Positions 1,907-32,000 of a DNA stretch of 32,000 bases are shown one piece after another. Position numbers and translations under genes: made by a program. How positions within the stretch are numbered: position 1 is the first letter of the stretch; each line of letters starts with the position of its first letter. Source of the DNA: Nitratidesulfovibrio vulgaris str. Hildenborough (GTDB lineage Bacteria; Desulfobacterota; Desulfovibrionia; Desulfovibrionales; Desulfovibrionaceae); the NCBI RefSeq assembly GCF_000195755.1, contig NC_005863.1:120001-152000 (forward strand), given 5' to 3'. The notes under the pieces are model-generated. The model was not told the DNA's origin and ran no database searches. It saw only the letters and a list, made by a program, of their open reading frames with translations.

Positions 1907-2485
1907 GGCCGACTCCTTTATTGCGTTATTCCACCTCCAAGCAAATTGCATTCCATAAAATTCTCCTTTCATGATACATTGTTATATGTGAAAGATGTGT
2001 CGAGAAACCTTACACTCACTGCCTTGCTTTACATGCCCCCCTCCTCCTCTCGCACGCTGGCGGGCTGCCGCCTCGCGGACGGCCCCTTCGCACCACCGCC
2101 AGAAGCGCCACCACAGGCAGAATGGCACACAACATACTGTCATTGCATGAAGTATGGTCTGCAAGGGCTCCGATACGCCACGGGCCCAGCGATGCCGACA
2201 CCAACGGACTATTGCCAGCGGACACGACAGGCACTACACCGGAGCACCGCAAGAACGGCTGCCGGGGCACGACGTGCCTGCGCCCTGCATGGCCCGGCCC
2301 GAACCTGCCTGAACCGGCCTGAACCGGACTGCCTGGGTCTGCCCAAGTCTGCCCCGATCCGGCAGGCGCACCCGGTGCCGGGGCTCACGCCTCACGGCAC
2401 GCACCTCGATCATCTACGGCAGGCAACCGTCCTGCGTTCGCACCTGCGCCGCCTTTGCGGTGCCAACCGTCTCCATGGAGAGAAC

Positions 2486-13569: not shown

Positions 13570-15753
13570 CTAGGGCTTGCGGCGCGTGAAGGACAACATG
13601 GTGATGTCGTCCGACTGTTCGGCCTCGCCCCGGAAGGCCAGCAACGCCTCGTGAACGCCCGTGAGCATGTCGGCAGGCGTGCTGGCGCGGTGCGCGGCGA
13701 CCACGTCATGCAGCCGCACCATGTCGAAGAGTTCCAGTGCCGGGTTCATGGCCTCGGTCACGCCGTCGGTGTAGACGAGGCAGGTCTGCCCCTCCTCCAG
13801 CGTCGCCGTGAAGCCCTCGTAGTCCACATCCTCGAACGCCCCCACCATCGGGCCGCTGATGCCCTCCAGTTCAAAGGGCGGGGCAGTGCCCTCGCAGTCC
13901 ACGACGCAGGGCTGGCAGTGCCCGCCGTTGGCGTATTCCAGCACGCCCGTCTGCGGGTCGAAGGCGGCGATGAACAGCGTCACGAACATGCAGCCGGGGT
14001 TGTTCTGCGCCAGCTGCGCGTTGACGCGCATCATGGCCTCGGCGGGCGACAGCCCCTGCGCCACGGCGTACCGGCACAGGGTGACCACCATCGCCATGAA
14101 CAGGGCCGCGGGCACGCCCTTGCCGGAGACGTCGCCGATGACGAACACCTGTCTGCCGTCGGGCGCGGTGAGAAAGTCGTAGAGGTCGCCGCCCACCTCC
14201 TTGGCGGGTTCGAGGAAGGCGTGGGCCGAGAAGCCCGGACGCACGGGGCACGCGTCGGGCGCGGGCAGGATGCCCATCTGGATGTCGCGCGCGGCGTCGA
14301 GTTCACCCTGAATGCGCTCCTTGGCGGCTGTGGTCTCCATGAGGGCGCGCACGTTGCGCGACAGCGCCTCGCCCATGAAGGCGAAGGCCCGCGCCAGTTG
14401 CCCCACCTCGTCGCTGCGCCGGGTGAACAGCCCCTCGGCGGCGAAGGTCGCGGCGTCGGGCGCGCTGAAGTCCAGCGACGACAGCGCATGGGCCTTGCGC
14501 GTGAGCATCCGCAACGGGGCGATGAGACGTGCGGTGATGCCGAGGGTCGCCGCAAGGCTGACCAGCACGGCGATGGCGGCAAGGAACGACAGCTTGCGCA
14601 CCAGCGCGTTGGTGGGGGCCTCTATCTCGGCCACCGGGGCGGCGGAGACGACATACCAGTCGAGGGCCTTGAAGTACGCGATGCGGAAGATGGCCTGACC
14701 GAGGGGCGACGACGCGGCAGAGACCACCTCGACCCGGCCCTGTGCCCGCGCCGTGGCGAGGGCGTCGGCGGGGATGGTGCCGTCGCTGCGCCCAAGCGGG
14801 TTGCCTTCGTGGGCCAGCACCTCGCCCCTGCCGGACAGGAGCGCGATGTAGCCGCTGCCGCTCAGCTTCAGGGTGGCGAACTTCTCTTGCAGGCTGCGGA
14901 TGATCTGTTGTTCGCTGAAGAGCGCCTGCTTCTCGATGTCGGACAGCAGCAGCGCGGAGACGGCGACACTCTCGCCGTCGGGCATGGGCAGGAAGTAGAC
15001 CAGCATGGGCGCGCCGGACGGGGCTACGGCTGTGCCGGTGGCGGGTGTGGCGGCAGAGGCAACGGGCGCTGGCGTCTGTGCATCCGCCTGTGCGTCCGCC
15101 TGTACGCCGGTCGGGACTGACGAAGCCGTATCGCCTTGCGCCGTCGCGAGGGGCAGCCCGTCAACGATAGCCGCGCCGGGGGCAGCGGCAGTGCCGGAAG
15201 CGACAGAGGCACCGACAGCGGACGCACCGCCCGAGGCTTCGAGCACGGCGAACTCGCCGTCCTGCGGCAAAAGCACCGGAGACAGCAGCGACCGCACCGG
15301 GCGACCCTTGAAGTCGGTACGCGACGGGTCGGCGAGCACAGTGCCGAGAAGCCCCGTCCCGGCCCGCGGGCGGCCCTGCGCGTCGACGATGTCCATGTGC
15401 ACGCCGAATTCGGCGAGACGCCCTATCCAGTTGGCGACGAACCGTTCGCGCACGTCGGGCGGCATCTGCGCCACATCCTGCCATGTGGCCCGCGCAAGCT
15501 GGGTGAAACGACGCAGCTGTTCCTTGCGCAGCAGCACGTCGACGACCTTGTTGCTGAGCAGGTTGAGGTAGCGCGAGTCGATGCCGTCTTCCATCAGGGT
15601 GATGACGTTGCCGAAGGCCTCGCGTTCGAGTTCGGCGTTGGACTGCCGCAGGTCGCGGTAGGTGAACGAGATGATGGGCACGGTCGCCAGCGCGATGGAG
15701 CACGCCACGAGAAGAAAGAGCTTGGTTCTGAGCGAGATGGTCATGGCTGGCAT
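13570..15753 (-). CDS. Membrane sensor Ser/Thr phosphatase: TM, periplasmic sensor region, TM, HAMP, then PP2C/SpoIIE domain
   Basis: The N-terminal TM is LFLLVACSIALATVPII, the second TM is LSFLAAIAVLVSLAATLGI, followed by a HAMP-like ARLIAPLRMLTRKAHALS. The SpoIIE signature is AARDIQMGILP...GGDLYDF...FVIGDVSGKGVPAALFMA...ANGGH...YTDGVTEA. An alternative start at ATG 15744 overlaps the stop of the upstream small ORF as ATGA. Confidence 0.9.
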   Translation of the reverse strand: MPAMTISLRTKLFLLVACSIALATVPIISFTYRDLRQSNAELEREAFGNVITLMEDGIDSRYLNLLSNKVVDVLLRKEQLRRFTQLARATWQDVAQMPPDVRERFVANWIGRLAEFGVHMDIVDAQGRPRAGTGLLGTVLADPSRTDFKGRPVRSLLSPVLLPQDGEFAVLEASGGASAVGASVASGTAAAPGAAIVDGLPLATAQGDTASSVPTGVQADAQADAQTPAPVASAATPATGTAVAPSGAPMLVYFLPMPDGESVAVSALLLSDIEKQALFSEQQIIRSLQEKFATLKLSGSGYIALLSGRGEVLAHEGNPLGRSDGTIPADALATARAQGRVEVVSAASSPLGQAIFRIAYFKALDWYVVSAAPVAEIEAPTNALVRKLSFLAAIAVLVSLAATLGITARLIAPLRMLTRKAHALSSLDFSAPDAATFAAEGLFTRRSDEVGQLARAFAFMGEALSRNVRALMETTAAKERIQGELDAARDIQMGILPAPDACPVRPGFSAHAFLEPAKEVGGDLYDFLTAPDGRQVFVIGDVSGKGVPAALFMAMVVTLCRYAVAQGLSPAEAMMRVNAQLAQNNPGCMFVTLFIAAFDPQTGVLEYANGGHCQPCVVDCEGTAPPFELEGISGPMVGAFEDVDYEGFTATLEEGQTCLVYTDGVTEAMNPALELFDMVRLHDVVAAHRASTPADMLTGVHEALLAFRGEAEQSDDITMLSFTRRKP

Positions 15754-16115
15754 GTCCGGTGAGGCGTTGCAGGTTCATGGATACGGAAGGCGGACAGGGG
15801 GCGGGCCGTCCCGTCCGTGGCGCAGCCTGTGGTGCGACAGGTGATACTGTGGGCGATACTGGTGACGGGATTGGGGGCGTTGCGACGGGCCGTGGCGCTG
15901 TCATTGCGGATGATGACGCCGCAGGCAGGGAGAGTCGTGTCGCCGCCCACATCGACGCCCACGCGGGGCCCCATGGCGTGAAGGACACCACCGGACACCG
16001 TGTCCGACGCGAGGCCCACGGTACCGGAGACGCGACAGGCGATACGGGTGACGGGATTGGGGACAGCGTCGGGGCGGTGGCGTCCCTTGCCCCACGGGCG
16101 ACACGGAGACATCAT
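15741..16115 (-). CDS. Candidate hypothetical protein (124 aa) with an internal PNPVT(R/S)IA repeat, translationally coupled on both sides
   Basis: The ATG at 16115 overlaps the EBP stop (ATGA, 16112-16115). Its own TGA at 15741-15743 overlaps ATG 15744 of the phosphatase (ATGA). By hand count third codon positions are about 80 percent G/C with a C preference, like neighbouring genes. No homology was recognised. Confidence 0.45.
   Translation of the reverse strand: MMSPCRPWGKGRHRPDAVPNPVTRIACRVSGTVGLASDTVSGGVLHAMGPRVGVDVGGDTTLPACGVIIRNDSATARRNAPNPVTSIAHSITCRTTGCATDGTARPLSAFRIHEPATPHRTCQP
15830..16085. repeat. Two ~60-bp imperfect direct repeats 186 bp apart
   Basis: The core GGCGATAC(T/G)GGTGACGGGATTGGGG at 15852-15876 and 16038-16062 matches at 24 of 25 positions. 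Both copies are preceded by GCGACAGG and followed by (C/G)GTGGCG. Copy 1 also has a 12-bp mini-duplication, gtgatactgtgg/gcgatactggtg. Confidence 0.85.
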
Positions 16116-17839
16116 GCCCTGTCGTCCCCGCCGGAGATGGCGAAGCGCAGCAGCTTCTTGCGAAGCCCCTCGCGGGTGATGCCCAGAAGTTCGGCGGCGC
16201 GACTCTTGTTGCCGCCCGCGTGGTCGAGGGCGGCGAGGATGGTCTCGCGTTCGAGTCCGTGCAGGTTGAAGCGGTCGGCGGCATCGGCCCCGCCGGAGAT
16301 TCCGGGCTGGCCGGCACCCGCGGATACGGCGGCGACAAAAGCAGGCGACGGGCTGGCAACGGACGGCGGCTGGTACCCTGCGCCCGGGAACGCCCCGGCA
16401 TCCGGCAGGGAACCCGCGCCGGGGAGTGACCCCGCAGGGCACGGCGCACCACCGGCACCTGCGGCACCACCGGAACCCTCTGCGCCAGCCGTGAGTCCCG
16501 GCGCGTGACCGGCCGACCCGGCAGATGCCGTCTCCCGGCCTGCCGACGCTGCGGCTGTTCCGCCCCCCGCACCGCCTCCCGACCCGCCAGCCCCGACGGG
16601 CCCGGCGATACGGGGCGACAGGTCGCCCACCTCCACACGGTCGCCGATGGTGAGCGCAGCGGCACGTTCCATCTCGTTGTTCAGTTCACGCACGTTGCCG
16701 GGCCACGCATAGCGGCGGAGCAGGTCGCGCGCGCCGAACGAGATGGTCAGCCGGGGCCGTCCCATCTGGGCGCAGTGCCGTTCGAGGAAATGCTGTGCCA
16801 GCAGCAGGATGTCGTCGCCGCGTTCGCACAGGGGCGGCAGGTGCACCTCTGCCACGTTGATGCGGTAGTAGAGGTCTTCGCGGAAACGCCCTTCGCGCAC
16901 CGCCTGTGCGAGGTCTGCGTTGGTGGCTGCCACGACCTTGATGTCGACGGGTATGGCGCGGCTGCTGCCCACGCGCACCACCTCGCGCCCTTCGAGGACG
17001 CGCAGCAGCTTGGCCTGATGCGGCAGGGGCATGTCGGCGAGTTCATCGAGGAAGAGCGTGCCGCCGTCGGCCTCTTCCACGAGACCCTTGCGCGCCGAGA
17101 CGCCCGTGGCGACCCCGCGTTCGATGCCGAACATCTCGCTCTCGAACAGGGCTTCGGGGATGGCGGTGCAGTTGACGGCGATGAACGGCCCCTCGCGCCG
17201 TGGCGAACTATAGTGGATGAGCTTCGCCACCACCTCCTTGCCTGCCCCGGTGGGGCCGAGAAGGAGCGTGTTGATGGGCCGCCGTGCGATGGAAAGGGCC
17301 ATGTCGGTCACGGCGCGCATGGCGGCGCACTGCCCGATGAGACGCCGGGGCTGGAAGCTGTCTTGCAGGGTATGGGCGAGACGCTGGTTGCGTTCGGTCA
17401 GCAGGCGGCGCGCCTCTTCGAGTTCTTCGTTGCGGTCGCGCAATTCGGCGATGAGTTGCGCCTGCTGGAATTCGCGTGCCTCGACCTTGACCAGCATCAT
17501 GCCGAAGGCCTCGGCAAGGCGGGTGTAGCGTTCAGGCACGGTGCCCGCCCCCGGCTTGGGTGACGTCTGGGGTGACGACTGGGGTGACGGCTGCTGCGCC
17601 CCTTGGCCCGAAGTCTGCGCTGACGCCTGCGATGGCGTCTGTGATGACGTCTGTACTGAAGTCTGCCCCGAAGCCTTTGATGACGCCTGCCCCGGCGTCT
17701 GGCACGGCGTCTGACCCGAAATCTGAAACGACGCCTGAGGTGCGGTCAGGCCGAAGAGTCTGTCTTCACTGGCGGGGCGACCCCATGCGAGGTCGTCGCA
17801 GAGGTCGATGAGGTTGTCGAGCAAGTCGTTCTCGTCCAT
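16112..17839 (-). CDS. Sigma-54 enhancer-binding-protein-family AAA+ transcriptional regulator with no receiver or sensor domain and a variant GAFTGA loop
   Basis: Walker A is LLLGPTGAGKE, Walker B is GGTLFLDE, and the R-finger region is FREDLYYRINV, followed by WPGNVRELNN. The C-terminal Fis-type HTH is GGNKSRAAELLGITREGLRKKL. The loop reads GIERGVATGV where the family has GHEKGAFTGA. Confidence 0.92.
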   Translation of the reverse strand: MDENDLLDNLIDLCDDLAWGRPASEDRLFGLTAPQASFQISGQTPCQTPGQASSKASGQTSVQTSSQTPSQASAQTSGQGAQQPSPQSSPQTSPKPGAGTVPERYTRLAEAFGMMLVKVEAREFQQAQLIAELRDRNEELEEARRLLTERNQRLAHTLQDSFQPRRLIGQCAAMRAVTDMALSIARRPINTLLLGPTGAGKEVVAKLIHYSSPRREGPFIAVNCTAIPEALFESEMFGIERGVATGVSARKGLVEEADGGTLFLDELADMPLPHQAKLLRVLEGREVVRVGSSRAIPVDIKVVAATNADLAQAVREGRFREDLYYRINVAEVHLPPLCERGDDILLLAQHFLERHCAQMGRPRLTISFGARDLLRRYAWPGNVRELNNEMERAAALTIGDRVEVGDLSPRIAGPVGAGGSGGGAGGGTAAASAGRETASAGSAGHAPGLTAGAEGSGGAAGAGGAPCPAGSLPGAGSLPDAGAFPGAGYQPPSVASPSPAFVAAVSAGAGQPGISGGADAADRFNLHGLERETILAALDHAGGNKSRAAELLGITREGLRKKLLRFAISGGDDRA

Positions 17840-17886
17840 CGTGTCCGGTTCCTTCTCCGCCGGGGCGCATGGCCCTGCGGCACGGC

Positions 17887-18927
17887 CTACCGTTCCTGAA
17901 GCGACTGCACCCAGCGCAGCACCTCGGCCACGGGGCCGATGAGTTCCTTGGGGATATAGGCGTTCTCGGTGCCTTCGGCGAAGAGGCTACGCGCCAGCGG
18001 CACGTTCTGCATGACGGGAATGCCCTCTTCGCGGGCTATCTCCACCATGCGGCGCGCCATCAGACCCTCGCCCTTGGCGAGGATGACGGGCAGCGGCGTC
18101 CTGTCCTTCTCGTAATCCAGTGCCACGGCGAAATGGGTGGGGTTCGTCACGATGACCTTCGCCTTGCGAACGTTCGAGAGCGTGTTCTGTGCCAGCATCT
18201 CCTGATGCAACTGCTTGCGCTTGCCCTTGATATGGGGGTCGCCCTCCATCTCCTTGTACTCGCGCTTGACCTCGTCCTTGGTCATCATATGCTGCTTGTT
18301 GTACTGCCAGCGCTGGTAGAGATAGTCCAGCGCGGCGATGACGCAGAAGACCACGGCAGCCATGAGCACCATGTCGCGCGCCGCCGTGCCCAGCACCTTC
18401 AACAGCAGCCCTATGTCGCCGTCGGGGATGGAGAACAGCCCGCGCATGTGGTCGGACATCACCTTCCACACCGCCCAGCCGAGAACGCCAACCTTGATGC
18501 AGTTCTTGAGCAGTTCTACCGCGTTGCGCATGGAGAACACCTTCTTGAACCACTTGCCGGGGCTGATGTTCTCAAGCTTGGGCATGGCCCCCTTGAAGGC
18601 GAAGAGCACACCCGTCTGCGCCAGCGTGCCGAGAAACGCCGCCATCATGGCAAGGCCCACCACGGGCAGCACGATGCCCACGGCGGCATGCACCACCGCC
18701 GTGCCCAGAAGGGGCAGCGCCTCGTCGAAGGGCATCGCCATGTGGCGCATCGAAAGTTCCGTCACCTCCATCAGCGAGGCGAAGATGGATTCCCCGGCGA
18801 AGGCGAAGTACCCTGCCACCGCAAGCACCGTCACCGCCGACCCGATGTCCTGACTCTTGCAGATGTCACCCTTCTCGCGCGCCTCGCGCAGGCGTTTGGG
18901 TGTTGGCTGTTCGGTCTTGTCGCTCAT
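17887..18927 (-). CDS. sctU: T3SS export-apparatus autoprotease / substrate-specificity switch (YscU/FlhB family)
   Basis: The start at ATG 18927 (MSDKTEQPTPKRLREAREKGDICKSQD) overlaps the sctT stop as ATGA. There are four TM segments. The NPTH autocleavage site is in KVIVTNPTHFAVAL. Confidence 0.95.
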   Translation of the reverse strand: MSDKTEQPTPKRLREAREKGDICKSQDIGSAVTVLAVAGYFAFAGESIFASLMEVTELSMRHMAMPFDEALPLLGTAVVHAAVGIVLPVVGLAMMAAFLGTLAQTGVLFAFKGAMPKLENISPGKWFKKVFSMRNAVELLKNCIKVGVLGWAVWKVMSDHMRGLFSIPDGDIGLLLKVLGTAARDMVLMAAVVFCVIAALDYLYQRWQYNKQHMMTKDEVKREYKEMEGDPHIKGKRKQLHQEMLAQNTLSNVRKAKVIVTNPTHFAVALDYEKDRTPLPVILAKGEGLMARRMVEIAREEGIPVMQNVPLARSLFAEGTENAYIPKELIGPVAEVLRWVQSLQER

Positions 18928-19745: not shown

Positions 19746-20006
19746 CTACAACAGGTAGAACTTGACGAATATCTCGTCTGCGAAGCGCAGCAGTTCACCC
19801 CCGAACCAGCCGCCCATGAGAAAGAGCGTGAGCACCACGGCGATGAGCTTCACCCCGAAGGTGAGCGTCTGTTCCTGCAACTGCGTGATGGCCTGTATGA
19901 GGCTGAGCACGATACCCACCACAGACGCCACGATGATGGGCGGCATGGAGAGCATCAGCACAAGGTACAGCGCCTTGACCGCGTATGTCATGGGCATCGA
20001 ATCCAT
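19746..20006 (-). CDS. sctS: T3SS export-gate protein (YscS/FliQ family)
   Basis: The start is ATG 20006, preceded by a GAAGGAA RBS. ALYLVLMLSMPPIIVASVVGIVLSLIQAITQLQEQTLTFGVKLIAVVLTLF closely parallels the recalled YscS sequence. The track extension to 20195 runs into the tandem repeat. Confidence 0.93.
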   Translation of the reverse strand: MDSMPMTYAVKALYLVLMLSMPPIIVASVVGIVLSLIQAITQLQEQTLTFGVKLIAVVLTLFLMGGWFGGELLRFADEIFVKFYLL

Positions 20007-20113
20007 GGGGTTCCTTCTCGTGCCCGCGCGTGCGGGATGACGGCGTGTGCCGATTCCTGACCTGACACCGGGGTGCGTGGCGGGCGGTATCGCCTGACCG
20101 AATAACAGCGTGC

Positions 20114-20225
20114 GCCGACGTCTGGCCGGATGACGGCATCTGCCGACGCTTGGCCGCATGACAGCGCCTGCCGACGCTTGACCGGATGACGGCATCTGCC
20201 GACGCCTGGCCGGATGACGGCGTCT
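20114..20225. repeat. 28-bp tandem repeat x4 in the sctV-sctS spacer
   Basis: Units are at 20114-20141, 20142-20169, 20170-20197 and 20198-20225, with consensus GCCGACGCYTGGCCGGATGACGGCATCT and 1-5 mismatches per unit. Each carries the mini-palindrome GCCGgatgaCGGC. A degenerate fifth copy lies at about 20279-20307. The unit length is not a multiple of 3. Confidence 0.9.
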
Positions 20226-20313
20226 GCTGCGCCTGCCGTGTAACTACCGCCCCGTGTCGCGGCCCCCGTCCCCTGACTGGCCGGATGGCGCCGCCGACGT
20301 CTGCCTGCCTTGC

Positions 20314-20339
20314 ATACGCCTGCGGGGTTACAGGCGTAT
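20314..20339 (-). other. Perfect 9-bp stem-loop straddling the sctV stop codon
   Basis: atacgcctg (20314-20322) pairs with caggcgtat (20331-20339). The 8-nt loop contains the TAA stop (20328-20330). There is no U-tract, so this is more likely a stabiliser, attenuator or processing element than a terminator. Confidence 0.4.
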
Positions 20340-22421
20340 CCTGTTCACGGGTTGCACCGAAATCTCTGGCGTAAGCTCCTGATACGACATGACGGCGAGG
20401 GTGTAGTGGTCGCCTTCGATGAGACGCCGCACATACCGTCTGATATCCATCGAGGTCATGATGACGGGCTTCTGCGTCTGCTGGGCATACGGCCCTGCGG
20501 CATCGGCAACCGCCTTCATGAACCGTTCGGTCACGGCGGGTTCCAGCGCGAGGAAGGCCCCTGCGGAGGTCTGCCGGACGGCCTTGCGGATGGTCTCCTC
20601 CACGCCGGGGTCGAGCAGGATGGCGGGCAGCATGTTCTGCCCGCGCGAGTGCATGTAGCTTATCTGCCGCTTGAGTGCGCTGCGGACATACTCGGTGAGC
20701 ATGACCGTGTCCTTCTCCTTGGCACTCCATTCGATGAGTGCTTCGAGGATGCTGCGCAGGTCGCGTATGGAGACCTGTTCCTGCACCAGCCGCTGGAAAA
20801 TCTCTGCGATGCGCTGCACGGGCAGCAGGCGGGTGACTTCGCGCACGAGGTCGGGTGCCCTCTCCTCCATGCGGTCGAGAAGGTACTTGGCCTCCTGCAT
20901 GCCGATGAAGGTGGAGGCGTGGCGCGAAAGCACCAGCGAAAGATGGTACGCGAGAATGCGCGCATGCGACATGTGCCCGATGCCCGCCTTCTCAAGCAGG
21001 CGGCATTGCTCGTCGGGCACCCACAGCGGTTCGACCTCGGGCAGGAAGCGTTCGCCCTCGCGCACGGCGACGCCCATCATGGCGAGGTTCTCGCGGGTGT
21101 CGCGCACGAGGCTCATGCCCTTCTCGAGCACCCCGCGCGACATGGGTATCTCGTTGAGGTTCAGCACATAGCACAGCCCCGGCAGCGCGGGGTTGGGGCG
21201 CACGTTGATGCCCGGAAAGGGCACCCCTAGGTCGAAGTACAGCGCACGGCGCAGCCGCGCCAGTTCATCGTTGAGCGAGTCGTAGTCGAGGCTCTCGCCA
21301 AGGGCCGGAGAGAGGTCGAGGATGATGGGCACGGTGGGGGCGAAGTCGTCGCCCTGCTGTGCGCCGCCCCGTGCGGGGCGCGGCTTCACCGCCGGTGCCA
21401 GCGAGCGCGAGAGTTCGGCGCGCGGGTCGGTCTCTGCGGGCAACTCCGCCATGCGGCGCAGCACGTAGCCGAAACCGCCGAGGGCCAGCGCCAGCCCCAT
21501 CAGCTGCGGCTTGGGGAAGCCGGGCACCAGCGCGAAGAGAAAGACCAGCCCCCCCGCCATGAGCAGGGCCTTGGGCTGTCCGAAAATCTGCCCGCCAATC
21601 TGCGCCCCCACGTTGCCGCCCGAATCGCCCGACCGGGTGATGAGAATGCCCGCGGAGATGGACACCAGCAGCGAGGGTATCTGCGATACAAGACCGTCAC
21701 CGATGGTGAGGATGCCGTAGGTGTGCAGCGCCTCGCCCGCCGCCATGCCGTGCTGCGTGATGCCGATGACCGTGCCGCCCACGATGTTGACCAGCGCGAC
21801 GATCATGCCCGCGATGCTGTCGCCCTTGACGAACTTCATGGCGCCGTCCATGGCGCCGTACATCTGGCTTTCCTGCGACACGGTGTTGCGCCTGCGCTGC
21901 GCCTCTTCCATGTCGATGACCCCGGCGCGCATGTCGGCGTCGATGGACATCTGCTTGCCGGGCATGGCGTCCAGCGTGAAGCGCGCCCCCACCTCGGCCA
22001 CGCGTTCCGCGCCCTTGGCGATGACGAGGAACTGCACGATGGTGAGGATGACGAAGACCACCGCGCCCACCACGAAGTTGCCGCCCAGCGCGTATTCGCC
22101 GAAGACGAAGATGATCTCGCCCGCGTCTGCCTGCAACAGGATGAGGCGGGTGGTGGTGATGTTGAGACCCACGCGGAAGAGCGTGGTGAAGAGCAGCATG
22201 GTGGGGAAGACCGAGAAGTCGAGGATGGACTTCACGTACATCGACATCATCAGCATCACGAACGAGAGCGCCATGTTGGCGCCGATGAGCGTGTCGACCA
22301 GCGGCGTGGGCAGCGGCAGGATCATCAGGGCGATGACCACCACCAGCAGCAGCACGATGGCGAGGTCGTTGTGCCGGGTGACAGCCCCCACGGCGGTATT
22401 GGCGCGGGCGAGCATGCTCAT
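20328..22421 (-). CDS. sctV: T3SS major export-gate protein (YscV/LcrD/InvA/FlhA family)
   Basis: The start at ATG 22421 (MSMLARANTAV...) overlaps the sctY stop as ATGA. Conserved blocks are FPTMLLFTTLFRVGLNITTTRLIL, GAERVAEVGARFTLDAMPGKQMSIDAD and GAMDGAMKFVKGDSIAG. Confidence 0.97.
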   Translation of the reverse strand: MSMLARANTAVGAVTRHNDLAIVLLLVVVIALMILPLPTPLVDTLIGANMALSFVMLMMSMYVKSILDFSVFPTMLLFTTLFRVGLNITTTRLILLQADAGEIIFVFGEYALGGNFVVGAVVFVILTIVQFLVIAKGAERVAEVGARFTLDAMPGKQMSIDADMRAGVIDMEEAQRRRNTVSQESQMYGAMDGAMKFVKGDSIAGMIVALVNIVGGTVIGITQHGMAAGEALHTYGILTIGDGLVSQIPSLLVSISAGILITRSGDSGGNVGAQIGGQIFGQPKALLMAGGLVFLFALVPGFPKPQLMGLALALGGFGYVLRRMAELPAETDPRAELSRSLAPAVKPRPARGGAQQGDDFAPTVPIILDLSPALGESLDYDSLNDELARLRRALYFDLGVPFPGINVRPNPALPGLCYVLNLNEIPMSRGVLEKGMSLVRDTRENLAMMGVAVREGERFLPEVEPLWVPDEQCRLLEKAGIGHMSHARILAYHLSLVLSRHASTFIGMQEAKYLLDRMEERAPDLVREVTRLLPVQRIAEIFQRLVQEQVSIRDLRSILEALIEWSAKEKDTVMLTEYVRSALKRQISYMHSRGQNMLPAILLDPGVEETIRKAVRQTSAGAFLALEPAVTERFMKAVADAAGPYAQQTQKPVIMTSMDIRRYVRRLIEGDHYTLAVMSYQELTPEISVQPVNRIRL

Positions 22422-22777
22422 GAACGGTCTCCCGTGAGATGGCGGTAGGTCTCCACCGCGCCGTGCGCCTCGTCGTGCCTGCCCTGCTGCCACAGCGCCT
22501 GTGCGCGCAGGAGGTGCAGCGCGGCGTCGGCAGAGGTGAGCACCATGCCGTCGAGGGCCTTGTGCAGGTGGTCGAGGGCGGCGGCACCGTCACCCTCCGC
22601 CATGGCGACGGCGGCGAGGTTGCGGTACACGAGGCTGACCTCGGCCCTGGGGGCGTCGTCGGGCAGCAGCGCGGCGATGGCGGCGAAGGTGCGGCGGGCG
22701 CTCTCGTGGCGGCCCATGCGCAGGTAGAGGTAGCCGAGGACGCTCAGCGTCCGGCGGCATTCGGGGGCGACGGCCAA
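22418..22777 (-). CDS. sctY: YscY-like TPR chaperone (partner of SctX)
   Basis: A TTG start at 22777 lies 6 nt after a GGGAGG RBS and just after the sctX stop. LSVLGYLYLRMGRHESARRTFAAIAALLPDD and LLRAQALWQQGRHDEAHGAVETYRHL parallel the two TPR-like segments of YscY. Its position immediately upstream of sctV matches Ysc loci. Confidence 0.7.
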   Translation of the reverse strand: MAVAPECRRTLSVLGYLYLRMGRHESARRTFAAIAALLPDDAPRAEVSLVYRNLAAVAMAEGDGAAALDHLHKALDGMVLTSADAALHLLRAQALWQQGRHDEAHGAVETYRHLTGDRS

Positions 22778-24646: not shown

Positions 24647-24885
24647 AGTGTATCCTCCACAAAAACTGCTGTGCATGTCCCCAATCTATCTACAAGAGCA
24701 GACGCCACCGGCCCATGGAAACGGGCCTGACGCCCGCCGCAGTGAGCCGAGTCGCGCCGTACCGTGCCTGTGTGATACGTCAGCACACTCTGCCGCACGC
24801 CACCTGATGCAGTCGGGCATGGCACCTGCCGCGCACTCTCAGGACTTACGTCCGTAGCAGCAACAACGTTGCAGATACACACCTT

Positions 24886-24901
24886 TGCGAAAAGCGGGCC
24901 A
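24886..24901 (-). promoter_or_regulatory. Candidate sigma-54 (-24/-12) promoter for the sctW operon
   Basis: The minus strand reads TGGCCCGCTTTTCGCA against the consensus TGGCACG-N4-TTGCW. GG and GC are at the correct 10-nt spacing and 11 of 12 specified positions match. It lies about 230 nt upstream of the sctW ATG. Confidence 0.4.
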
Positions 24902-25101
24902 GAAGGTCCACATCCTACCACGCATCCACACGCATTGGCACTTGAAGAGACACCCGAGAAAATGCTTTAATGCGCTGTACAACGGCTAGTTAAATGACAT
25001 ATTCCGGGGCATGTCGGCAACAGCGCATGATGGTACACCCTACCTGCTGGCAGCCGCCCTACTCCGGTCACCGAAGCCGTGCAGGAGACGACACACCCGC
25101 A

Positions 25102-25118: not shown

Positions 25119-25292
25119 ACTGGCACATGGTACAGTCATGGACAGCACGCCAACAACACTGCCGCAAGGCGGCATATAAAGGCAACGATGTTGGCACTTC
25201 GAGAGGGGTACAACGGGCAGACAAAGGCGAAGCACCGGGTCTGACATCACAAACCACTGCAATGACACACTCTGCACCCCGCAAAGGGGGCA

Positions 25293-25308
25293 TGGCATAC
25301 TTGCTGCT
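25293..25308 (+). promoter_or_regulatory. Candidate sigma-54 (-24/-12) promoter for the translocator operon
   Basis: TGGCATACTTGCTGCT has TGGCA at -24 and cTGCT at -12 with correct GG-N10-GC spacing. The predicted start is about 25320, leaving a ~33-nt leader that contains the AGGAGG RBS of the ORF at 25353. Confidence 0.45.
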
Positions 25309-25352
25309 ACGGCGGAATCGTCCGCACCCGAACACCGCAGGAGGAACCGACC

Positions 25353-25655
25353 ATGGCTTTCACCGAACAGGATTTCGAAGCGCAACAGGCACAGCTGCGT
25401 CAGCTTGAAGACGAACTCTCGCGCCTCGACGCGCAACTGGACGCCCAGATGAAGGCCGCCGGTGTCTCCGGGGCCGACCTCGCGGCGGTCGACACCGCGA
25501 CCCTGCCGCCCGAAGTGGCCAAGGCCTTCACGCAGGCGCAGGAGAACGCGAAGCGCGAGGGCGAGGCACGCGCCAGCCGTTGCACCACCGCAGCCACGGC
25601 CACGACCTCGGCCAAGATTCCCGGCGCAGGTCGCCGCGGTGCCGTCCGCCTCTAG
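25353..25655 (+). CDS. Small coiled-coil protein in the LcrG/PcrG position (putative tip-protein chaperone or regulator)
   Basis: An AGGAGG RBS precedes the start. The 100-aa protein has an N-terminal heptad region (EAQQAQLRQLEDELSRLDAQLDAQ) and a basic tail ...GRRGAVRL that recalls the LcrG/PcrG tails (MMRGQII, LMRGLMI). It is first in a gene order that parallels lcrG-lcrV-lcrH-yopB-yopD. Confidence 0.6.
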   Translation: MAFTEQDFEAQQAQLRQLEDELSRLDAQLDAQMKAAGVSGADLAAVDTATLPPEVAKAFTQAQENAKREGEARASRCTTAATATTSAKIPGAGRRGAVRL

Positions 25656-31243: not shown

Positions 31244-32000
31244 GCAGTAGCGGCGACATCATCCTTCGCGTCTTCTCCGGCCCCCATACGGGGGCCGAGG
31301 TGGTGCTTCCGCCCGGCGACCATGTCATCGGCACCGAAGACTCGTGCGACATCATCCTCTCCGACGGCGGGCTTGCGCCACGCCACGTCTCCATCGGCGT
31401 CACCGCCGGAGTGCCCGGTGCGCCATCCACCGTCCACATCACCCCGCTTGACGGCCCGGTGCGCTACGACGATGCCGAGGTGCCCGCCACGGGCGTGACC
31501 CTCGCCCCGGCGACCCCCTGCCACATCGGGGAGACCTGCCTTGCATGGAACACCCCCGGCGCACCGTGGGAGACCTTCGACCTGACACCGCGCCAGTCCG
31601 TGACGGCTGCCGACGCGGCAGCGGGAACATCCGCCATGGCGGGTGGCGACCCTGCGGCGTCCACGCTTTCCGCCAATGCGGCCGCCAGTGCATCCCCATC
31701 GGGCGCGGCGGGCGATGCCCCCTCGGGCGCATCCCAGACGCCAACACTTTCGGCAACGCCTGCCAACGAAGTTGACGACCTCGTACTCGGCAGCCCCACC
31801 CGGCCCCACCACGAAAAACGCTGGCGGTCGGCCCTGCTGGCTGCCGCCGTCATGCTGCTGTGCACCAGCACGGTGGTCATCACCCTTGAGACACGCCCGC
31901 CCGCACCCCCTGAACGCGCGGCGCACCTTGCGGCGCAGCTTCATGCCGCGGGACTGACCGCCTTGCGCGTCGAGGCACGCCCCGAAGGGGTGGTCGTCTC
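31240..32000 (+). CDS. sctD: T3SS inner-membrane ring protein with an N-terminal FHA-fold domain (YscD/EscD/PrgH family), truncated by the window end
   Basis: Absent from the ORF track because it runs off the window. Its ATG overlaps the sctC stop as ATGA. ILRVFSGPHTGAEVVLPPGDHVIGTEDSCDIILSDGGLAPRHVSI parallels the YscD sequence [43 protein letters not shown]. A TM segment (WRSALLAAAVMLLCTSTVVI) follows near 31810-31870. Confidence 0.85.
   Translation, partial: MSSSGDIILRVFSGPHTGAEVVLPPGDHVIGTEDSCDIILSDGGLAPRHVSIGVTAGVPGAPSTVHITPLDGPVRYDDAEVPATGVTLAPATPCHIGETCLAWNTPGAPWETFDLTPRQSVTAADAAAGTSAMAGGDPAASTLSANAAASASPSGAAGDAPSGASQTPTLSATPANEVDDLVLGSPTRPHHEKRWRSALLAAAVMLLCTSTVVITLETRPPAPPERAAHLAAQLHAAGLTALRVEARPEGVVV

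Follow-up and report, generated by a model that had tools for sequence, protein, structure and literature searches.

In Pseudomonas syringae, its type III secretion system (T3SS) stands under the control of the enhancer-binding proteins (EBPs) called HrpR and HrpS, a paralogous pair that forms a hetero-hexamer, carries the canonical GAFTGA motif, and has almost no N-terminal extension. The pair activates one promoter, that of hrpL, and the extracytoplasmic function (ECF) sigma factor encoded there then drives the T3SS genes. Partner-switching modules are also linked to T3SS, i.e. BtrU/BtrV/BtrW in Bordetella and RsbU in Chlamydia. The Phe of GAFTGA is regarded as defining and essential in sigma-54 activators, and surveys of regulons filter for the motif. 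Proteins of the TyrR, DhaR, HupR, R. capsulatus NtrC, and VpsR type have substitutions or deletions in GAFTGA and are sigma-70 dependent (Francke et al. 2011, BMC Genomics 12:385). Here, we analyze DVUA0100, an EBP gene in a T3SS operon, whose L1 loop has the tip GVATGV. It lies in a stretch of 32,000 nt of Nitratidesulfovibrio vulgaris str. Hildenborough (D. vulgaris in the cited surveys; contig NC_005863.1, positions 120,001 to 152,000 of the forward strand), and this whole stretch is called the window throughout.

DVUA0100 (gi 46562157; NC_005863, plasmid pDV1) is covered by two surveys (Francke et al. 2011; Kazakov et al. 2015, BMC Genomics 16:919), and its GVATGV loop, its two promoters, the palindrome of its upstream activating sites (UAS), and its T3SS regulon are already published. 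Additional file 3 of Francke et al. lists it among EBPs “inactivated by small changes”, with the entry “GVATG__V, F3->A, np (not probable)”. Also on this sheet are the D. vulgaris DP4 and Miyazaki orthologues as well as proteins from D. magneticus, Lawsonia intracellularis, Geobacter lovleyi, and Solibacter usitatus; Francke et al. found seven cases. Kazakov et al., who described the sigma-54 regulome of D. vulgaris Hildenborough, discussed one such protein, reported the motif, and stated that the “substitutions do not prevent activation”; the regulon that they predicted for DVUA0100 comprises the same two promoters and a third target, DVU4010. The two surveys thus contradict each other, “probably inactive” versus activation not prevented, in both cases as predictions. 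What is new beyond both is the recognition of the loop as a class that crosses phyla. Our analysis makes it likely that DVUA0100 encodes a sigma-54-dependent, positively autoregulated master activator of the T3SS with a non-aromatic L1 tip.

The L1 loop of DVUA0100

In a homologue search, the DVUA0100 product was 100% identical to a “sigma-54 interaction domain-containing protein” of N. vulgaris. The window belongs to the megaplasmid of this species, and its bases 15500-18500 are 100% identical to plasmid NC_017311 of strain RCH1. A preliminary description of the locus, made from the sequence alone, had placed an EBP at 16112-17839; the open reading frame (ORF) and Pfam matches bear this out and put the gene on the minus strand, which had not been given. 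The PF00158 match spans profile positions 1-167 of 168, and phmmer comparisons of the AAA+ domain with solved EBP structures gave E-values of 1e-55 to 1e-70. Sensor I (ATN), the REDLYYR arginine fingers, and the GNVREL sensor II are intact and conserved in the translation and the homologue alignments. Together with Walker A, Walker B, and the Fis-type helix-turn-helix (HTH), all of which are present, they agree with the earlier view that the AAA+ core is otherwise canonical.

In the phmmer alignments to solved EBPs, FGIERGVATG-V stands opposite FGYEKGAFTGA of FlrC and FGHEKGAFTGA of NifA. The tip GVATGV comprises residues 242-247 (nt 17099-17116). Ala244 is opposite the Phe of GAFTGA, so that position 3 lacks the aromatic Phe or Tyr of EBPs; Thr245 is opposite the Thr, the Thr or Ser at position 4 being retained here and across the loop class; and one residue is deleted just past the motif. 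The reported replacement of GHEKGAFTGA by GIERGVATGV was therefore correct in sequence and position, as judged by translation and alignment. Other registers of L1 were examined for a Phe or Tyr at the tip, which the preliminary description had named as a possible outcome of realignment. No register puts an aromatic residue there, and HMMER sets a single gap after ATG.

The preliminary description had called the loop “degenerate”, a term that does not fit the data, because the loop is strongly conserved: a large group shares it as a fixed variant, together with correlated changes. The loop, the entire AAA+ core, and the HTH are kept among 45 homologues with identities of 48 to 99%. This has to be weighed against the possibility that DVUA0100, on a megaplasmid that the cell can dispense with, is decaying or has no function and that the loop changes reflect drift. 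The long repeat-derived low-complexity insertions in the N-terminus and the linker would fit decay, but the ORF is intact, its operon position is conserved, and at least 120 species share the loop. We regard gene decay as refuted by this conservation and assign it a negligible probability.

A loop class across bacteria

An exhaustive phmmer search covered 1.84 billion representatives, and the best 150 matches were taken for loop typing. They fell into two sharply separate types. About 67 of the best 150 have FG-I/V...G[VIT]A[TS]GV, which is one residue shorter than the canonical loop in the alignment of these proteins, and nearly all of the others have the canonical type, FG-H/Y...GAFTGA. Among the 120 best homologues, which include Desulfovibrionales and Bilophila, 119 have FGIE[KR]G[VIA]A[TS]GV, and in the remaining one the loop was not located by the pattern. 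When 135 relatives were compared, Ala occupied the Phe position in 71 of 71 loop-class proteins, and Phe or Tyr occupied it in 64 of 64 canonical proteins. In L1, the class-specific columns show Ala in place of Phe (100%), Ile/Val in place of the His/Tyr after FG (100%), and Val in place of Ala; beyond L1, they include the L2-loop position S293 and the sensor-II-helix position E389.

The loop was also scanned for with a back-translated DNA pattern, using one genome per species, and at least 120 species matched. The matches listed come from Acidobacteriota, Thermoanaerobaculia, Myxococcota, Geobacteraceae, Thermodesulfobacteriota, Planctomycetota, Gemmatimonadota, Nitrospira, Ignavibacteria, and some Beta- and Gammaproteobacteria. 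A domain scan of 84 full-length loop-class proteins found HTH_8 in 79, GAF in about 48, and FHA in nine, with receiver domains in only two; a few are giant STAND or kinase fusions. As far as their sequences tell, the proteins of this class (“class B”), which spans many phyla, are otherwise ordinary one-component EBPs, mostly with a GAF or FHA domain followed by the AAA+ domain and the Fis HTH. Sigma-54 is present in Lawsonia, Solibacter, and D. magneticus, and the obligate intracellular pathogen L. intracellularis retains a GVATGV EBP together with sigma-54 (Francke et al. 2011, tables).

Sigma-54 promoters at the T3SS locus

The preliminary description had also proposed -24/-12-like sites at 24886-24901 (minus) and 25293-25308 (plus), and both are present (Table 1), so that GG-N10-GC promoters lie at the predicted target genes. 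They were scored with a position weight matrix (PWM) built from 84 D. vulgaris sigma-54 promoters, with the three DVUA0100 targets left out. The minus-strand promoter, given as DVUA0106 -257 in the supplement of Kazakov et al. (2015), precedes the operon of DVUA0100 itself, and the plus-strand promoter (DVUA203 -62 in the same supplement) lies 44 nt before the ATG at 25353, at the start of the divergent translocator and secretin operon. A raw consensus scan of the window gave 22 matches with no more than two mismatches versus 18.8 expected, which is not above chance, and the two T3SS promoters are credible only because they are conserved in other species.

Counterparts of the translocator promoter are found 29-38 nt before the ATG in Bilophila and in two further loci (L126 and L128), and the yopN-operon promoter has counterparts in the corresponding position in Bilophila, L005, L126, and L128. 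Both divergent promoters thus occupy equivalent positions in four diverged Desulfovibrionaceae species with GC contents of 58-69%, and L005 has one of them. In the species with both promoters (window, Bilophila, L126, and L128), two UAS-like palindromes lie between them, 21-35 bp apart. The pair in the window and the motif GCCAAC-N3-GTTGGC had been predicted for DVUA0100 (Kazakov et al. 2015, supplement). The HTH_8 match and the paired palindromes in four species point to a C-terminal Fis-type HTH that would recognize a UAS.

The -12 element of the yopN-operon promoter reads TCGCA, and not TTGCA/T, in four of the five species (including L001, L005, and L126). DVU4010, another predicted target of DVUA0100, has TTTCGCTA at its promoter, and TCGC is found in only one other promoter of the PWM list, DVU1164. 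We considered whether the TCGC variant matches the loop class as such and rejected this, because the promoters next to other class-B genes have the canonical TTGC. The variant can therefore characterize no more than the T3SS clade, and the PWM is biased against detecting TCGC.

Sigma-54 promoters beside class-B genes

For the whole class, 120 species loci (914 kb) from the matches listed were scanned for promoters. PWM matches of at least 16 bits numbered 24, versus 2.8 in dinucleotide shuffles. Among the 49 matches of at least 14 bits, 21 are oriented away from a class-B gene at a distance of no more than 350 bp, either shortly downstream with the orientation of the gene or upstream and divergent; 2.0 were expected (binomial p=7e-17, an overstated significance because the null is uniform over the sequence whereas promoters lie between genes). 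Only one match of this strength points toward a class-B gene, and the ratio of 21 outward to one inward match rules out a composition artefact. At most of the adjacent matches, an ORF starts 12-110 nt downstream. An outward site was found in 21 of the 86 loci for which both flanks were available, i.e. in about a quarter, a share that we judge to be high for two intergenic regions flanking one gene. In other phyla, according to crude calls, a small ORF of 50-125 aa comes after many of these promoters (e.g. L089 4549-4719 and L123 4289-4459, also L088, L065, and L047).

These loci also bear on the idea that DVUA0100 is a co-activator or anti-activator, i.e. that its rings sit on the UAS without remodelling sigma-54 themselves, and that it either works only in mixed hexamers with a canonical EBP, as in HrpR/HrpS or FleQ/FleT, or competes for the enhancer and so dampens activation. 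Heteromeric EBP pairs are known in T3SS control, e.g. HrpRS (PMC3105312), D. vulgaris Hildenborough has 36 other EBPs, and the UAS-like site just downstream of the minus-strand promoter could be repressive. However, the window and seven related T3SS loci contain no second EBP gene, and among the matches listed only four of the 120 loop-class loci have one, which is canonical in two of these. An adjacent canonical partner is therefore not the rule, and we rejected it as a general explanation. The strict conservation of the loop tip would also be unexpected for an idle loop, so that a co-activator or anti-activator role appears improbable.

Weighing sigma-54 dependence

Several points speak against activation of sigma-54 by DVUA0100. 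Its loop has Ala where the Phe should be and is shorter by one residue. In PspF, F85 and T86 contact region I of sigma-54, every tested p-benzoyl-phenylalanine (pBpa) substitution in GAFTGA lost open-complex formation, and all but G83pBpa lost sigma-54 trapping (PMC3467059). The F3->A proteins were classed as probably inactive, among them DVUA0100 with the label “not probable” (Francke et al. 2011). A literature search found no experiment on DVUA0100 or any other GVATGV protein. The minus-strand promoter has a score of only 12.8 bits and TCGC versus the consensus TTGC at -12. The promoter adjacency, with its overstated significance, is guilt by association, and a canonical EBP encoded elsewhere could fire these promoters. 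Lastly, when the loop was masked, a neighbour-joining tree of the AAA+ core failed to unite the loop class in a single clade: the largest pure clade has 16 of the 71 members, and identity is 0.48 within the class versus 0.46 between classes. We therefore do not claim a single origin of the class.

The first three of these points are also the arguments for a sigma-54-independent regulator resembling TyrR, DhaR, HupR, R. capsulatus NtrC, or VpsR. Such a protein would have lost the sigma-54 contact and would repress transcription or act at promoters of the sigma-70 type, and something else would serve the -24/-12-like sequences, unless these have no function. In contrast, the inactivated entries of Francke et al. 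mostly lose the Thr or have a deletion within the motif, as do the TyrR-like entries (GAYP_N) of their alignment, in which the Thr is replaced and the deletion lies inside the motif, whereas the loop class keeps A-T-G and a fixed loop. In addition, DVUA0100 retains all ATPase motifs, promoters and UAS pairs are conserved beside the gene in four species, and strong promoters in target orientation are found beside class-B genes across phyla. Sigma-54 independence is thus unlikely. The preliminary description had left the choice between a non-canonical sigma-54 contact and a sigma-54-independent regulator open and had seen a tension between the loop and the promoters. Conservation of the promoters in four species and the class-wide adjacency support sigma-54 dependence and favour the first option; the tension did not materialize, as the promoters are conserved and the genes of the class adjoin strong sigma-54 promoters.

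Under sigma-54 dependence, DVUA0100 dimers would bind the paired GCCAAC-N3-GTTGGC sites of the divergent control region via the Fis-type HTH, and the AAA+ domains would assemble into a hexamer. ATP hydrolysis would then remodel sigma-54 RNA polymerase at the two divergent -24/-12 promoters. The minus-strand promoter would drive yopN-...-sctV-sctSTU-EBP-SpoIIE, resulting in positive autoregulation, and the plus-strand promoter would drive the translocator/secretin operon. The GVATGV tip presumably still engages sigma-54 in the manner of an aliphatic pore loop, given that the loop class keeps the essential Thr and replaces the aromatic residue by small or beta-branched aliphatics. From general knowledge of AAA+ proteins, we speculate that the shorter loop might shift the register of the tip, so that an aliphatic side chain takes the place of the Phe; at position 2, the residue is beta-branched (Val, Ile, or Thr). 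The conserved N-terminal helical and coiled-coil module probably gates activity, which, more speculatively, may be gated by the co-transcribed membrane sensor phosphatase of the PP2C family as well, in most relatives.

With somewhat lower confidence than for DVUA0100 itself, we favour the extension to the whole class, i.e. that GVATGV-type loops mark a second class of sigma-54 activators, widespread and functional, which would remodel sigma-54 without an aromatic residue. A natural, functional F-to-A class would surprise specialists, because GAFTGA of PspF is sensitive at every position. If it exists, the rule of the Phe contact is wrong or incomplete, and part of the sigma-54 regulome has been missed systematically, especially in Acidobacteriota and the former Deltaproteobacteria, as genome-wide surveys discard class-B proteins by the GAFTGA filter (Francke et al. 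2011; PLoS One 2025). The class also provides natural variants for probing the role of the L1 tip, i.e. a grip on sigma-54 region I versus sensing of the -12 fork. For the T3SS of D. vulgaris, of the human gut pathobiont Bilophila wadsworthia, and of the pig pathogen Lawsonia, a likely master switch is identified, with the sensor phosphatase as a possible input.

The N-terminal module

Residues 1-166 matched no Pfam or NCBIfam domain. AlphaFold2 (AF2), run with an alignment of 45 sequences, gave a mean predicted local distance difference test (pLDDT) score of 70, with helices at residues 3-18, 25-32, and 103-162, disorder at 36-99 and in the Gly/Ala linker (416-519), and the HTH. Among the homologues, the motif of residues 3-32 is LIDLCDDLAWGRPASED..LFxLT, with C14, A18, L28, L31, and T32 invariant (alignments A1 and A2), and residues 105-125 are strongly conserved in the alignments (RLAEAFGMMLVKVExREF). 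An impression of likeness to HAMP, raised by the AFGMM motif, was not confirmed. The S/T/Q/P insertion is built of 12- and 24-nt tandem repeats; it is present in both N. vulgaris homologues aligned and absent in 12 of 12 non-vulgaris homologues (alignment A1). The Gly/Ala linker varies in length and sequence between homologues. Close homologues of 80-95% identity have lengths of 532-575 aa, and one aligned N. vulgaris relative differs mostly in the insertion and the linker (17543-17734 and 16283-16594).

The structure prediction and the alignments thus indicate a conserved helical input module at the N-terminus of DVUA0100. The preliminary description had stated that the protein has no sensor domain, which is right insofar as Pfam gives no match and overlooks the conserved helical module with its helix of about 60 residues. 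Likewise, the S/T/Q/P stretch that it reported at the N-terminus exists and is a tandem-repeat insertion with no counterpart in the aligned non-vulgaris homologues.

Table 1. Features of DVUA0100 and of the surrounding T3SS locus (positions in the window)
Feature	Position (nt)	Strand	Basis
EBP gene DVUA0100, 575 aa	16112..17839	minus	ORF; Pfam PF00158, AAA_lid_14, HTH_8
Conserved N-terminal motif (residues 3-32), LIDLCDDLAWGRPASED..LFGLT	17744..17833	minus	two short predicted helices
S/T/Q/P low-complexity insertion (residues 36-99)	17543..17734	minus	pLDDT <50
Long helix/coiled coil (residues 103-162), starting with RLAEAFGMMLVKVEAREF and leading into AAA+	17354..17533	minus	AF2 pLDDT 70-89
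AAA+ sigma-54 interaction domain (residues 167-332)	16844..17341	minus	PF00158, E=2.9e-61
Walker A, GPTGAGKE	17234-17257	minus	translation
L1 loop, FGIERGVATGV (residues 237-247)	17099..17131	minus	aligned to FG(H/Y)EKGAFTGA of NifA and FlrC
Walker B, GGTLFLDE	17042-17065	minus	translation
AAA+ lid, AAA_lid_14 (residues 339-412)	16604..16825	minus	PF25601, E=1e-20
GNVREL sensor II motif, inside the lid	16682-16699	minus	translation
Gly/Ala-rich disordered linker (residues 416-519)	16283..16594	minus	pLDDT <50
Fis-type HTH, HTH_8 (residues 529-566)	16142..16255	minus	PF02954, E=4e-13; nearly invariant GNKSRAAELLGITREGLRKKL
sctU, directly upstream of the EBP gene	17887..18927	minus	PF01312, E=7e-117
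DVUA0099, Cache/HAMP-SpoIIE (PP2C) membrane phosphatase	13570..15753	minus	Pfam SpoIIE, HAMP, Cache
Predicted sigma-54-type promoter TCTGGCCCGCTTTTCGCAA, yopN...sctU-EBP-SpoIIE operon	24885..24903	minus	PWM 12.8 bits
Predicted sigma-54-type promoter CATGGCATACTTGCTGCTA, divergent translocator/secretin operon	25291..25309	plus	PWM 17.4 bits
Paired UAS GCCAACATCGTTGCC and GGCAGTGTTGTTGGC, palindrome GCCAAC-N3-GTTGGC	25149..25195	.	sequence
Third UAS-like site TGCAACGTTGTTGCT, just downstream of the minus-strand promoter	24859..24873	minus	Kazakov 2015: DVUA0106 -227

The T3SS operon and its neighbours

The operon has the gene order yopN/tyeA, sycN, yscX, yscY, sctV, sctS, sctT, sctU, EBP, and Cache/HAMP-SpoIIE phosphatase, with DVUA0100 as the second-last gene; the sct gene order and the Pfam matches confirm that the EBP gene is embedded in a T3SS operon, as first described. 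The divergent operon encodes the translocator chaperone, the translocators, a CesT-type chaperone, and the secretin. The order sctU-EBP and the operon are kept in seven other loci, i.e. in Bilophila (L001 and L002), L003, L005, L126, L127, and L128.

A SpoIIE phosphatase gene follows the EBP gene directly in the window, L003, L004, L126, L127, and L128, and no SpoIIE gene was found after the EBP gene in the Bilophila and L005 loci. In L004, the EBP-SpoIIE pair occurs without T3SS genes within 10 kb on either side. This linkage suggests phosphorylation state as an input to EBP activity and DVUA0099 as a candidate input to DVUA0100.

In the window, the stop codon of the EBP gene and the start of the SpoIIE gene are separated by a spacer of 358 nt (15754-16111), in comparison to about -4 to +15 nt in relatives. 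The spacer contains a 25-nt direct repeat, GGCGATAC[T/G]GGTGACGGGATTGGGG, at 15852-15876 and 16038-16062 (96% identical, 186 nt apart), as well as a weaker third copy, and a hypothetical ORF, DORF807, has been given for it (Kazakov et al. 2015). Between sctV and sctS, no sctR (FliP family) is present in the window (19746-22493) or in L001, L003, L005, and L126-L128; sctR must therefore be located elsewhere, probably in the other operon, past the window end. A conserved convergent block lies downstream of EBP-SpoIIE in L126 (13680-21347), L127, and L003 (13342-21170). It encodes a protein of about 500-575 aa, an unusually long major facilitator superfamily (MFS) protein (about 800-870 aa), an ABC_sub_bind protein, and a protein of about 700-830 aa. 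An ABC_sub_bind gene is also present at 2-1063 of the window.

Two further sites concern the control elements of the window. A second UAS-like pair at 31740-31776, consisting of the minus-strand sequences GTCAACTTCGTTGGC (one mismatch) and GCCGAAAGTGTTGGC (two mismatches) 22 bp apart, lies close to the window end in a part without annotation, about 500 nt past the point where the secretin ORF ends (31243). DVUA0100 might have a further enhancer here; no sigma-54 promoter of at least 10 bits was found near the pair inside the window. The strongest sigma-54 match of the window, TATGGAATGCAATTTGCTT at 1939-1957 (minus strand, 22 bits), has a gene for a PEP-CTERM protein downstream of it (1289-1972, minus). 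It is the DVUA0089 promoter, and it is unrelated to the T3SS regulon because it has been assigned to the regulator DVUA0057 (Kazakov et al. 2015).

Comparison with known systems

DVUA0100 shares with PspF, NtrC, NtrC1, NifA, FlrC, and FleQ the AAA+ motifs, the lid, the Fis HTH, and UAS together with -24/-12 promoters beside the targets. It differs from these canonical EBPs in the GVATGV tip without an aromatic residue, in FG-Ile instead of FG-His/Tyr, in the loop that is one residue shorter, in the class-specific L2-loop and sensor-II-helix positions, and in the lack of a receiver, GAF, or PAS domain. PexR (NAR 2025) was considered as a precedent, but it has the canonical GAFTGA and acts with sigma-54, and hence is not relevant. 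A literature search on T3SS regulation in Bilophila found nothing relevant.

With TyrR, DhaR, HupR, R. capsulatus NtrC, and VpsR, DVUA0100 has in common the PF00158 domain and a non-canonical L1 region. In contrast to the disrupted L1 of that type, its Thr is kept, the loop is fixed, and the shortening lies after the motif. Furthermore, TyrR/HupR-type regulators would not be expected to have -24/-12 elements, and conserved elements of this kind are found 29-44 nt before the first ATG of the translocator operon in four species.

The Btr and RsbU modules likewise have a PP2C sensor phosphatase (SpoIIE/RsbU-type) encoded with T3SS genes. The difference is that the DVUA0099 phosphatase is coupled to an EBP gene, and that neither a STAS protein nor an anti-sigma kinase turned up in the window.

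Like DVUA0100, HrpR and HrpS are EBPs without a classical sensor domain, and they control a T3SS through sigma-54. The likeness to HrpR/HrpS proposed in the preliminary description is nevertheless weak. DVUA0100 is encoded by a single EBP gene, and not by one of two paired paralogues, and it has a conserved helical N-terminus of about 165 aa (about 100 aa without the insertion) in place of almost no extension. Its action on the T3SS also appears to be direct, as the predicted promoters lie immediately on the T3SS structural operons, in contrast to the hrpL-type sigma-factor step by which HrpR/HrpS reach their T3SS genes.

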